64,000 nucleotides of DNA from Verrucomicrobiota bacterium (GCA_049517655.1 JBEKRQ010000001.1:661438-725437); one strand, 5' to 3'; numbered from the stretch's first letter, positions 14,372 through 18,200 are shown. The notes: a model not told the origin generated them from the letters alone. Numbers and translations: made by a program.

Positions 14372-15220
14372 TTATTGTTCCCCGAAGTCGCTTTTTCTAA
14401 TTGTGTCGCCAGCCTTCACATCTCTTCTAAGCTTCATGCCTTCCAGCGTCTTTAGACCCGATACTTCGTCTACTGGCACTTCATCGGCCAAGTACACCCG
14501 TTTCATTCGGCCAAACCCTTTTTGAAATTTACTGCCCGAATTCAGGTCCTTCGCATATGCAAATACAACCCAATAATTTCGGCATGACCAATTTGTGACT
14601 ACCTCCGACGGAACCTCACGAGGAGGTAAACGGACATTGTTAGTCCAATTATCAATGGCACAGGCATGCACCATATTACTCTCTACAAGTGGAGGCGAAT
14701 ATATGCCAATGACAACTCCATGCTTGTCAATCGCAAGTAAGCTCGGCCAACGCTGGAGCAGGTTATATGGTTCTGGTAACGGAGCGTGCCTGAGTTTATT
14801 ATTATTAACAACGGGGAAGTCAGTTAAGTCTTTAATTGCAGTTGGAGGATTGATATCGGGCGTAAAAAACATCGGGCCGTAGGTAAAGCCGATCACGGCA
14901 ACATTGGTGCTGTATTGTTGTCTCAAATTATGCAGGACGGTCAATTGCTGTATTAAAGTCTTTTCGTTTCGTGGGCCGTCAACGAAATCGCCAGTATCAA
15001 ACGCAACTAACAGCAATCGTTTCCCTTTATAATCCTGCAATCGCAATTCCGGACCATCATCACTCCTATCTCTCAACGGACAAGAAAATTCGGGCGCTGG
15101 CACACCAATCCATTGAGAATAATAATCGCGTGTTTGTCGTTCAACATTCTGGCGTGTCTGTCCAACTGCGTCAGCTCGAAACAACAAGCTTGTCAATAAT
15201 ACAAGTAACGTATATCGCAT
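14372..15220 (-). CDS. Secreted thioredoxin-fold (TlpA/ResA-like) protein lacking the CxxC motif, with an extra C-terminal domain. Candidate immunity for the PLA2-like tip of the main Rhs.
   Basis: Signal peptide MRYTLLVLLTSLLFRADA. APEFS...LRLQDYKGKRLLLVAFDTGDFVDGP aligns by eye to AP.F.L.D..G....L.d.KGK.vll.FWa.WC.PC, with the active site replaced. VAVIGF, DFPVV and PSLLAIDKHGVVIG match later redoxin motifs. Starts 33 nt after the main Rhs stop. Confidence 0.6.
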   Translation of the reverse strand: MRYTLLVLLTSLLFRADAVGQTRQNVERQTRDYYSQWIGVPAPEFSCPLRDRSDDGPELRLQDYKGKRLLLVAFDTGDFVDGPRNEKTLIQQLTVLHNLRQQYSTNVAVIGFTYGPMFFTPDINPPTAIKDLTDFPVVNNNKLRHAPLPEPYNLLQRWPSLLAIDKHGVVIGIYSPPLVESNMVHACAIDNWTNNVRLPPREVPSEVVTNWSCRNYWVVFAYAKDLNSGSKFQKGFGRMKRVYLADEVPVDEVSGLKTLEGMKLRRDVKAGDTIRKSDFGEQ

Positions 15221-15253
15221 AAATAATTTATAATGTTAAGGTGATCACGGCTC

Positions 15254-18200
15254 TTAAAAGCTAATTATCGTAATTTTGCAGCAGAACCGTCCTTTTCCGT
15301 CTTCAGCATTTCTTCTTGAACACATAGCGCACTGTATCTCAGCGTTCGCCCTTTCATTGGAAAGATTGGCATTGGCGCGCGCACAATCACACAGCAGATC
15401 GTCACACCTGTCAGTATCGACTTTACCGGCCAGCTTTTTGTGGTTATCAAGATCCCAATTTGCAAAGCAGGCATCATGTTTTCGACAGCAATTATCCAGA
15501 CCATCCTTTACAGCGGGCGATGGATCGTTTTCCCAATCGTAATCTGTTGAGGCTATGTTTTGACCCCCTGTCCAATCAGATCCACACCAATTGCCCCAGA
15601 TTTGTTTCAAACCTCTTGGATCAATCTGGTCTATGGGCGAGTTTTTCGCGAATAAGTAGCTTGGAAGATTTCCATGTTCAACCAAATGTTTTTGAGCACG
15701 CCAACCTTTTCCTTTAGTTTGCTCCCGCAAAAATGCTTCGTCTCCAAGTGGGTCTTTGCCCAAGAACCGCCCGAATGATGGAGAATATGGACGCATTTCA
15801 TAGAGAATCAGATCAGTTGTGTCATTCATTCGCTTCGTCGAAAATCTGAACGGATTCTCTTTAGCCATTAAGCCGGTGGCTCGAATCGGTTTTCCAAACG
15901 TTTCATATTCGTAATTCGCCGATACCGTTCCATCACTCGCCTTTACTAACGCGGCTACGTTTCCATTTCCATCATACGCATAGAAATGCTCTCCATTGAC
16001 TGCGCTGTTCATCATCAACAACCCACCAACACCTCCAGCACCGTCCATGCTCCCGCTCAAGTCGAGTCCCCAAGTATAAGAACGAACCAACGCATTGTTT
16101 GTCGCGTTCAACTCCGCAATATGTCGCCAACCATCGCTTACAAACTTCAAATCTTCTGTCACCAAATAGCTGCCAGAACTGCCATCATACGTCGTCTGGC
16201 GAATCCTTCTTCCTTTGCCGTCATATTCCCATGTTACTTTCCGTTCAGAGGCGGTCGGTGTGTTGGTCAAACTTTCAGCCTTTGTCAGCCGATTTTCAGC
16301 ATCCCATGTCAGCATCCATCGCCCATCATTCGTCAGGTTCCCGTCGGCATCGTAGCCAAATGTTTCTGGTGTCTTTGTGATGAAGATGTTGCCGGTATTG
16401 GTATTGTTACCACTCGCCACTGTGACGCCGAGCCACGCCGGCGCGGAAGAATTATTCGTGCCCATTGCGCTCTGGAAGTATTCAACTTTTCTATAAGCGA
16501 TTTGCCCATTTACAGTGACCGCATTTGTTGCGATGGCTACGCCGATAACATCGTTCATCCCCGGATAATCACGGCTGGTAATTTGATTCAATGTGTTCAC
16601 GGAATATGATGCAGGCCGGAGGCCTGCGCCACCTTGGTCGCCACCAGCTTTTGTCTGCGTCCGATTGCCAATGTTGTCAAAGTTGTATTCAAACTGCTGC
16701 CCCGCCACGGGGGTCCCGTCTGACCAGTATTTCTTGCCGGAAGTGACTTGGCCAAGTGAGTCGTAATTGTAAATCCAGTATGAACCGTCAGCTAACGTGG
16801 TTCGTGTCCTTTGGTTGGCGTTGTTGTAATTGTAGGTGTGAGAGTCCAAAGTCCGAAGTCCAACGTCCAAAGTCGAAATTTGCGTGAGGCGATTCAGATT
16901 ATCGTATGACTTGGTTGTGGTCATGCGAGTTGTGCCGCTTTGCTGGAATGTAATCTGCCCCACCAGCGGAGAATTGGCAAGATAGGAATAAGTCGCCGAG
17001 TCCAAAGTCCCAAGTCCAATGTCCAAAGTCGAAACGGTCTGGAGACGGGAGGCGGTGTCGTAAGCATAGGAAGCAGAAGCAAGGAGCACGGATGAAGGAT
17101 TAAGCAGGGAAAGGTTGGTGCGGCGCAAATAGGAGTCGTAATTGTTGGTCACCGTGACTCCGTTGACGGTTTCGCTCAAAAGCTGATTCGCTGAATTATA
17201 TGTCAGGGACTCGGTGGAACTCGCCCCTCCGACTTGAATGAGACGACCCAAACGGTCGTAGGTGTTGGTGACGTTTGATGTTGTGCCACCGGAATAAACA
17301 ATTGTCGCCAGACCGCCTGCGTTATCGTAACCGTACGTCGTCGTTATACCACGTGCCCAGGTGCGTGAGGCCAATCGTCCAGCCGAGGTGTAGGTGTAGC
17401 CCGGCCCGGCTGCGCCGCCGTCATAGGCCTTGCTCGTGAGCCAGCCTCGCTGGCCATTGTAATTCCAAGTCGTCAGGCGAGCGCCGGTGTTTGGATAACT
17501 CGACCAGTTGGTCATGGTTTGCAGCCGCCCGGCGTAATCGTAACCATAGCCCACCGGATAGGTGCGTGAGCCGTATTGCAATCCCAGTTCGCCGGTGAGC
17601 AGATAAACACTATTGACGGTCGTCCCATCAGGCTGGATGACACTATATGGCCGCATCATGTTATCATAAAGCGTAGTTGTAGTCTGGGACAATGGCGCAG
17701 CTACGCTCGTCACCAGATCGGCGTTATTAAAACCGTAAGTAGTCGTGCCATTACGAGCATCGGTGACGGTGTTTTGTCGGCCCTGCGGGTCGTAGCCGTA
17801 GGATGAAGAAGCAAGGAGTACGGAGGAAGAATCAAATCTTTGCACTTGGGTCAGCCGGCCATAGGAGTAGGCGCTGATGGTGTAGGAGCCGTCCGGGGCG
17901 GTGGTGATGGTCGAACGGCTGTTGCCCGAATAGCTGGTCTGACTGGTGGCCGTCACCGGCGTGCCGGCGTCGCGATAAACGGTCTGCCAGTTGGTTAAGT
18001 CGTCGGTGGAGACACGAATTTCACTAATTAACACAGATTGATCCACGCCGTTTTGATCCCAGACGTATGTGCGGCTGCGTCGAACATTCACACCGTTGAC
18101 GGTTGTCACGTCGTTAGTGGTCCAAGTGATGCGGTCAGTGCCGCCAAAATCAATTGTGCCATTGCGATCCATGTCAATGGCGGTATAGGCGAGCTCGCCT

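Follow-up and report, generated by a model that had tools for sequence, protein, structure and literature searches.

A Verrucomicrobiota Rhs toxin with a secreted phospholipase A2-type tip and a redox-dead thioredoxin-fold protein as its probable immunity partner

The lipase effectors Tle1-5 of type VI secretion systems (T6SS) hydrolyse membrane lipids from the periplasmic side, and exported immunity proteins (Tli) are encoded alongside them. Tle3 and Tli3 are one such lipase effector/immunity pair (PMC9860674). A phospholipase A2 (PLA2) domain of RHS and filamentous toxins, Tox-PLA2, was described in 2012 (Zhang, de Souza, Anantharaman, Iyer, Aravind; PMC3482391). Its entry gives Sec-dependent export (listed as 'T2SS', type II secretion system), no immunity protein, the Streptomyces PLA2 structure 1kp4 as the reference fold, and the motifs DxC[ST] and CxxHxxxYxN (PMC3482391). 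Here, we analyse a locus of related design in 64,000 nucleotides (nt) of DNA from a Verrucomicrobiota bacterium. This whole stretch is referred to as the window, and all coordinates count along it. It contains the gene of an Rhs protein with a PLA2-type C-terminal tip, which is followed by the gene of a thioredoxin-fold protein. We propose, with a probability of roughly 70%, that the former is a Sec-exported toxin with a Ca2+-dependent His/Asp PLA2 tip, and that it is neutralised in the periplasm by the latter, a redox-dead thioredoxin-SAF immunity protein.

All features described in the following lie on the minus strand. The main Rhs protein is encoded by an open reading frame (ORF) of 1834 amino acids (aa; 15254..20758) and contains seven stretches of RHS repeats (PF05593, E=2.2e-20). 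In translation, its N-terminus resembles a Sec signal, with MKLIYNFLHYNVRITVAFLVCFACCRVFA ahead of LN. The Rhs core ends with SPIDQIDPRGL, which directly precedes the tip; the DPRGL element (15608..15622) corresponds to the PxxxxDPxGL self-cleavage motif and marks the border between the shell and the variable tip. The tip itself (15257..15607) comprises 117 residues, 11 of which are Cys, and constitutes a domain of the secreted PLA2 (sPLA2) superfamily. The equivalent of the Ca2+ loop is W7-C8-G9-S10-D11 (WCGSD, 15575..15589). The catalytic His and the Ca2+-binding Asp correspond to H44-D45 (15473..15478) inside CCRKHDAC, and the second core helix carries C68-D69-D70-L-L-C73-D-C75 (CDDLLCDC, 15383..15406). 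The ORF of the putative immunity protein (282 aa, 14372..15220) begins 33 nt past the Rhs stop codon (15254-15256), and the next Rhs fragment begins 39 nt past its own stop. It codes for a putative signal peptide, a redox-dead thioredoxin-fold domain and a SAF domain. The strings that had been quoted for both proteins in a first-pass annotation of the window, namely WCGSD, CCRKHDAC, CDDLLCDC, FDTGDFVDGPR and the C-terminal GMKLRRDVKAGDTIRKSDF of the partner, were all found in place by translation of the minus strand.

Like Tox-PLA2, the window tip is a PLA2-type domain at the C-terminus of an RHS toxin. The motif CxxHxxxYxN is matched by C41-x-x-H44-x-x-x-F48-x-N50 with a Phe in place of the Tyr, and exactly in relatives of the tip (CRKHDACYAN). 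In contrast, the clade of the window tip possesses the canonical W-C-G-x-G Ca2+ loop (N-W-C-G) instead of DxC[ST]. Moreover, none of the 70 sequences in our tip-domain alignment A3 matches PF09056, the Pfam counterpart of the Tox-PLA2 reference 1kp4, and 1kp4 is not among the 60 that are listed of the 80 matches of the A3 profile in the PDB. Finally, a conserved partner was found here, whereas the 2012 table lists no immunity protein. According to the first-pass annotation, a thioredoxin scaffold without redox cysteines is not known to be established as an immunity fold for a disulfide-rich lipase. Rhs toxin/immunity systems and PLA2-type tips on Rhs toxins (PMC3482391) were already known, and what appears to be new is the thioredoxin-fold immunity family. 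Among the immunity families named in PMC3482391, there is no thioredoxin and no SAF. Likewise, neither a thioredoxin-fold immunity protein for a lipase toxin nor an sPLA2-type Rhs effector with an immunity protein was found in open-access papers and bioRxiv. With the Tle/Tli pairs, the locus shares a proposed lipid-hydrolysing toxin that would act on the periplasmic side and an adjacent, putatively exported immunity protein. However, Tle1-4 belong to the GxSxG alpha/beta-hydrolases and Tle5 to the phospholipases D, so that none of them is a His/Asp Ca2+-dependent sPLA2; the Tli folds are different, and T6SS genes are missing from the window.

As searches with the single tip sequence stayed below threshold, profiles were needed for its characterisation. 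A word-indexed protein search yielded only three close relatives of the tip. A profile of three sequences was then compared with 1.84 billion cluster representatives at E<=1e-3, which resulted in a tip family of 97 proteins. In nearly all of these, the pattern [WY]CGx[GDN] is located approximately 30 residues ahead of CxxHD. Many have a DPxGL end of an Rhs core just before the tip, several carry the source annotation 'RHS repeat-associated protein', and entries annotated as 'phospholipase A2 family protein' were also reached. H44 and D45 are invariant both in A3 and in a second tip alignment of 54 sequences (A4); D38 is invariant in A3. Nearly invariant are G5, C8, G9, W12, G15 and C41. At the last position of the Ca2+ loop, family members have G, D or N, the closest homologues G.

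Compared to the PDB, the A3 profile matched 80 distinct sequences at E<=1, all of them secreted PLA2 chains. Elapid group I enzymes rank first, headed by 1ows_B with E=4.8e-6. The bee venom enzyme 1poc was matched with E=4.8e-5 over profile positions 25-114, which include the Ca2+ loop and both helices. Among the 70 members of A3, 23 match PF00068, 12 match PF05826, 11 match PF08398 and seven match PF06951. Note that the score of 118 bits reached by the window tip against the A3 profile follows by construction, since the tip is itself a row of this alignment. An hhalign comparison of the tip profile with bee venom PLA2 gave E=3.4e-6 and placed C68, D69 and C75 on C63, D64 and C70; D64 is the second-helix Asp of the bee venom enzyme, for which group I has Asp99. 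In this alignment, the catalytic His, the Ca2+-binding Asp, the Asp of the second helix and the three core disulfides all have counterparts in the bee venom enzyme; the corresponding disulfide framework of the tip is probably C8-C41, C40-C75 and C47-C68. The tip resembles the animal sPLA2s (bee venom group III, 1poc; elapid and pancreatic group I) in the order and spacing of its Ca2+ loop, its CCxxHDxC motif and its second helix with C-D...C, and in the putative disulfides. It differs from them in that it is only about 20-27% identical, has a deviating C-terminal part with two extra helices and extra Cys residues, and is fused to Rhs and not a free enzyme.

Altogether, the His-Asp pair of CCxxHDxC on a helix, a loop of the x-C-G-x-G type, the Asp of the second helix and the homology at the profile level indicate that the tip is a member of the sPLA2 superfamily and represents a separate bacterial clade within it. 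The first-pass annotation was therefore right in calling the tip PLA2-like at the level of the superfamily, as judged from profile searches and the conservation of catalytic residues. Its more specific label, group III or bee-venom type, finds no support over other sPLA2 groups: PF00068 is matched by 23 members and PF05826 by 12, and the elapid enzyme is matched with a lower E-value than 1poc. PF05826 is, on the other hand, the sole direct Pfam match of the tip itself.

A model of the tip generated by AlphaFold2 from the 54-sequence alignment reached a predicted local distance difference test (pLDDT) score of 83 and a predicted TM-score (pTM) of 0.78. The modelled helices 36-48 and 65-78 hold CCRKHDAC and CDDLLCDC, respectively. 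With Foldseek, the best match of this model in the PDB was the bacterial sPLA2 7ygk at a non-significant E=1.5. In the BFVD, nearly all matches were VP1 proteins of parvoviruses and densoviruses, which carry PLA2 domains; the best one had E=0.011 and TM-scores of 0.57/0.66. For the identity of the tip, the comparison of predicted folds is the weakest line of evidence.

The downstream protein has an N-terminus that looks like a type I signal peptide (15164..15220). It reads MRYTLLVLLTSLLFRADA ahead of V, with a putative cleavage site between the two, and the pattern is conserved in the alignment A2. Among 5.8 billion clusters, 20 homologues were found, and no relative was detected in the GTDB representative genomes. 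The sequence of one homologue is identical to the partner; NCBI lists it as 'SAF domain-containing protein [Verrucomicrobiota bacterium]'. NCBIfam, PADLOC and PHROGs gave no match for either the partner or the tip. The C-terminal residues 219-279 (14384..14566) match SAF (PF08666) over profile positions 3-62 of 63 with 27.2 bits and E=5.9e-6. The cut-off is 21 bits, so that the SAF-type C-terminus, which had been proposed tentatively, can now be taken as a regular Pfam assignment.

Matches of the partner to Redoxin (PF08534, 14.6 bits with a cut-off of 26.6) and AhpC-TSA (PF00578, 14.5 bits with a cut-off of 26) stayed below threshold and covered only 40 N-terminal residues. Similarly, its sequence profile did not match the PDB significantly (E 0.11-0.87). 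For this reason, the thioredoxin fold is recognisable by structure comparison only. A partner model computed by AlphaFold2 from the alignment of homologues has a pLDDT of 83.6 and a pTM of 0.75. Foldseek aligned it with ResA, peroxiredoxins and AhpE in the PDB at E~1e-6, with a probability of 1.0 and a target TM-score of up to 0.72; the thioredoxin-fold domain spans about residues 36-190 (14651..15115). With TlpA, ResA and the peroxiredoxins, the partner has in common the fold, a probable periplasmic location and the landmarks xFxxxDxxG..., FPxxxD and xPxxxLIDxxG. Unlike these enzymes, it lacks both a CxxC motif and a peroxidatic Cys, it possesses an additional C-terminal SAF domain, and the sequence similarity is not significant (E 0.1-0.9).

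The position of WCxxC or of the peroxidatic Cys is occupied by the loop FDTGDFVDGPR (14969..15001), which contains no Cys. This assignment is based on the alignment A2, a listing of the individual members and an alignment to Bcp (3drn). The loop is conserved as FD(T/A)G(D/N)FV(D/N)GP in each of the 18 homologues whose sequences extend over it. A CxxC motif is absent from all 20 homologues, and the family contains neither a conserved nor a peroxidatic Cys. The partner is therefore a derivative of the thioredoxin fold and not a functional oxidoreductase. The proposal of a redox-dead TlpA/ResA-like fold is consequently borne out by structure prediction, Foldseek and the missing CxxC. The most conserved stretches of the partner are PYNLLQRWP (residues 151-159), GFTYGPMFF (111-119) and GDFVDGPRN (77-85). 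Judged from the usual thioredoxin topology, they probably form loops around the former active site. The segment PYNLLQRWPS (14741..14770) is the most conserved of the family and presumably contains the cis-Pro loop, as suggested by the sequence pattern of TlpA and ResA; P159 is invariant.

In all seven independent loci that contain a tip of this subclade, the tip is located directly upstream of a partner gene, and no such tip was found without a partner. These pairs, given by our locus numbers, are the window with its copies (L007-L010, the locus having many metagenomic copies), L001/L002, L004, L005/L020, L011, L012 and L015. In L005/L020, the partner is just 39% identical. A search from the side of the toxin led to the diverged tips P0121 and P0026, each of which is again followed by a partner homologue (the pairs L011 and L012). 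Tip and partner diverge together. For example, pairwise identities among four pairs (window, L001, L004, L005) are 43-72% for the tips and 38-65% for the partners and drop in parallel. L011 and L012 follow the same trend, with 46-47% identity to the window for the tips and 36-37% for the partners. In the contig of P0020, a cut ORF of 562 aa, which may carry a tip, ends 48 nt upstream. Between the tip and the next cassette of the window, the ORFs include no other candidate for an immunity gene.

Five or six partner genes are found alone (L003, L006, L014/L017, L018, L021 and probably L016). No remnant of a tip or of Rhs was detected beside them by tblastn and by searches with hidden Markov models. 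Their neighbours are an inositol phosphatase (L003), hisI (L018) or unrelated sequence (L006, L014, L021). A housekeeping role of the lone copies with conserved synteny was considered and discarded, as the neighbourhoods differ. One lone thioredoxin-SAF copy (L017, 3001-3666) matches residues 1-222 and diverges thereafter; it is probably frameshifted or decaying. Since the toxin never occurs without the partner and the partner often occurs without the toxin, the distribution follows the pattern of an immunity gene and not that of a dedicated chaperone. Adjacency, co-divergence and orphan copies thus favour the immunity role assigned to the partner in the first-pass annotation. Furthermore, the locus displays the features of an Rhs polymorphic toxin, i.e. 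RHS repeats, a DPxGL motif and a variable tip, a co-varying downstream gene and orphan cassettes.

The following mechanism can be proposed on this basis. The Rhs protein would be exported by Sec, as suggested by its signal-like N-terminus and by the finding that no PAAR, VgrG or T6SS genes are present within the 64-kb window. An effector delivered by a T6SS was rejected for the same two reasons. The Rhs shell would enclose the tip, which would be released behind DPRGL. In the tip, H44 would serve as the general base, supported by D69 of the second helix, and the Ca2+ ion would be held by D45 and the W-C-G-S-D loop. The predicted reaction is the hydrolysis of the sn-2 ester of membrane glycerophospholipids in a neighbouring bacterium. 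As the tip should need disulfides and Ca2+, it would act only from the periplasmic or outer side of the membrane, which is oxidising and contains Ca2+. The partner presumably descends from a TlpA/ResA-like thiol-disulfide oxidoreductase that lost both active-site Cys residues and gained a C-terminal SAF domain with a beta-clip fold. After export, it would capture the tip, most likely in a stoichiometric complex, within the periplasm of producer and kin cells, and block the active site or the membrane-binding face. The best candidate for the contact surface is the former active-site face with the loops FDxGDFV, GFTYGPMFF and PYNLLQRWP, where conservation within the family is highest.

Several findings weigh against this reading. 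The tip alone scored 13.7 bits against PF05826 in Pfam (cut-off 22, E=0.071), and a phmmer search with it in the PDB gave nothing significant (E>=1.4), snake and group X PLA2s appearing at E=2.5-10. The tip also deviates from the sPLA2 consensus at two positions, the last Gly of the Ca2+ loop being an Asp and the Tyr after HDxC a Phe. Roughly half of the partner genes lack a neighbouring toxin, so that a toxin-independent role is possible. Finally, the known thioredoxin-like partners of disulfide-rich effectors are accessory factors and not immunity proteins (PefG, bioRxiv 10.1101/2023.03.28.534661; TrxA-TreX, PMC11606950).

Another explanation would be that the likeness to PLA2 stems from a short Cys-rich motif matched by chance, with an unrelated activity of the tip. 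The sub-threshold Pfam match, the non-significant Foldseek comparison with the PDB and the existence of a second tip in the window (10677-12206) that contains CCAQHDQCF without other PLA2 support are in line with such a coincidence. It is nevertheless very improbable: all profile matches are sPLA2s, with E-values down to 4.8e-6 and alignments that span both helices and the Ca2+ loop, four PLA2 families of Pfam are matched, and it is precisely the catalytic residues that are invariant.

The tip might also have the PLA2 fold without being an antibacterial lipase. It could damage or penetrate eukaryotic membranes, in analogy to parvovirus VP1u, or be a non-catalytic binder, and the partner would then have another function in the envelope. 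This is improbable as well, although the relatives of the tip include parvovirus-type PLA2 domains and eukaryotic venom enzymes, no T6SS genes are located nearby, and this copy has an Asp for the Gly of the Ca2+ loop and a Phe for the Tyr after HDxC. Non-catalytic PLA2 homologues such as the K49 myotoxins typically lose the Ca2+-binding Asp. In the window tip, however, the His, this Asp, the Asp of the second helix and the core cysteines are all retained. Across the family, D and N are frequent at the end of the loop. In known sPLA2s, the Ca2+ ligands of this loop are backbone carbonyls, and an Asp at its last position is therefore tolerated in principle. Moreover, an exported partner that is strictly co-inherited and co-diverges with the tip is a hallmark of interbacterial toxins.

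Alternatively, the partner may be a periplasmic accessory factor or chaperone, which holds the tip with its 11 Cys residues, folds it or loads it into the shell without redox chemistry, while immunity is absent or encoded elsewhere. There are precedents for such a function. The thioredoxin-like oxidoreductase PefG is required for the disulfide-rich effector PefD (bioRxiv 10.1101/2023.03.28.534661), TrxA serves the toxin TreX as a chaperone independently of redox chemistry (PMC11606950), and T6SS effectors need DsbA (PMC5792426). The Sec-type N-termini of both the Rhs protein and the partner imply that the two would meet in the periplasm, and the strong conservation of the former active-site face would suit a chaperone. 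As in these systems, a thioredoxin-fold protein is tied to a secreted antibacterial toxin, and in the case of TrxA and TreX the tie is independent of redox chemistry. Unlike PefG, TrxA and DsbA, which contribute to the activation or maturation of toxins, the window partner is characterised by a gene position, a co-divergence and orphan copies that point to neutralisation. Its gene occupies the canonical position of an immunity gene, with no competing ORF ahead of the next cassette. It travels with truncated orphan tips that are not exportable on their own (L001, L011), and the five to six lone copies in unrelated contexts would leave a dedicated chaperone without a client, whereas orphan immunity genes are common. 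We therefore consider an accessory role unlikely and retain the interpretation of the partner as an immunity protein.

A bolder version of the immunity reading is that the partner represents the first immunity family for sPLA2-type bacterial toxins and that it works through the exapted substrate-recognition face of an oxidoreductase. The former CxxC loop, GFTYGPMFF and the cis-Pro loop would once have gripped Cys-containing substrates of a TlpA/ResA-like enzyme; the same loops would now clamp the Cys-rich catalytic face of the PLA2 as a 'substrate trap' without turnover, which would make the partner a natural scaffold for the inhibition of secreted PLA2s. We put this forward tentatively and regard it as possible but doubtful.

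The analysis adds a clearly bounded clade of bacterial domains (97 representatives) that are of the canonical sPLA2 type with the Ca2+ loop, are used as Rhs tips and are covered by no curated model of Pfam or NCBIfam. For one subclade, it adds a specific co-evolving partner; PLA2-type polymorphic toxins had so far been without a listed immunity protein. In addition, a periplasmic oxidoreductase fold that has lost its chemistry has apparently been recruited to inhibit a disulfide-rich enzyme. If the partner indeed binds the tip, it would provide a natural proteinaceous inhibitor of sPLA2s and a tractable model for the neutralisation of lipase toxins in the periplasm.

The surroundings of the gene pair contain further elements of this kind. 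Downstream, 1010..14332 is taken up by orphan cassettes of Rhs C-termini in an array, each with a small ORF behind it; by this context, the locus can be recognised as a polymorphic toxin system. The array consists of at least five truncated Rhs C-termini with differing tips: cassette 12605-14332 with a transmembrane ORF (12258-12638), cassette 10677-12206 with a lipoprotein-like ORF (9821-10666, N-terminus …LYGC), cassette 6751-9894, cassette 4827-6356 with a small ORF (4318-4839), and cassette 3045-4361 with a small ORF (2494-3048). Beyond RHS repeats, Pfam assigned nothing to the tips and small ORFs of the array. The tip of cassette 10677-12206, which comprises the last ~114 aa and carries CCAQHDQCF, was considered as a second PLA2 and rejected. 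It matched the family profile with E=0.1-0.2 over 16 residues only, it has no Ca2+ loop, and it gave no PLA2 match in the PDB. Its likeness to PLA2 has the appearance of a chance match and illustrates that a short motif alone can mislead.

On the other side, an ORF of 1971 aa (20769..26684) ends 10 nt before the start codon of the main Rhs gene and is a possible operon partner. Its product carries Ig, I-set and fn3 repeats and is found at the same position in all of the metagenomic copies L007-L010. An adhesin function is conceivable, as is a part in the delivery of the Rhs toxin.

Among the relatives of the tip, five proteins of 480-640 aa (P0063, P0078, P0095, P0101 and P0111) have a tip-like segment in their ~60 N-terminal residues (MVRxHGNWCGPGWTAG…CKxHDI) and are otherwise without annotation; P0095 passes the cut-off of PF08398, which describes PLA2 domains of the parvovirus type. 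Possibly, these proteins are capsid-like and belong to uncultured single-stranded DNA viruses, which would share the PLA2 clade with the bacterial Rhs tips. A PLA2-type Rhs tip was also found in a cultured organism, Neisseria zalophi (CP031700.1; L013, 4001-5650). It is interrupted past the catalytic helix by an insertion sequence with a DDE transposase and sits in an array of Rhs cassettes alongside a Tox-WTIP tip.

One toxin superfamily with several immunity families is typical of polymorphic toxins, and different subclades of PLA2 tips appear to use unrelated partners. The more distant PLA2 tip P0124 of L022 has behind it a multi-pass membrane protein of 129 aa (3534-3923) and not a thioredoxin-SAF protein. 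On three unrelated contigs (L001, 1089-9535; L011, 1-5527; L022, 1-3923), orphan PLA2-tip cassettes with their partner gene directly follow a DnaG-like primase together with one or two tyrosine integrases, which points to an integrative mobile element with toxin-tip/immunity cassettes as its cargo.

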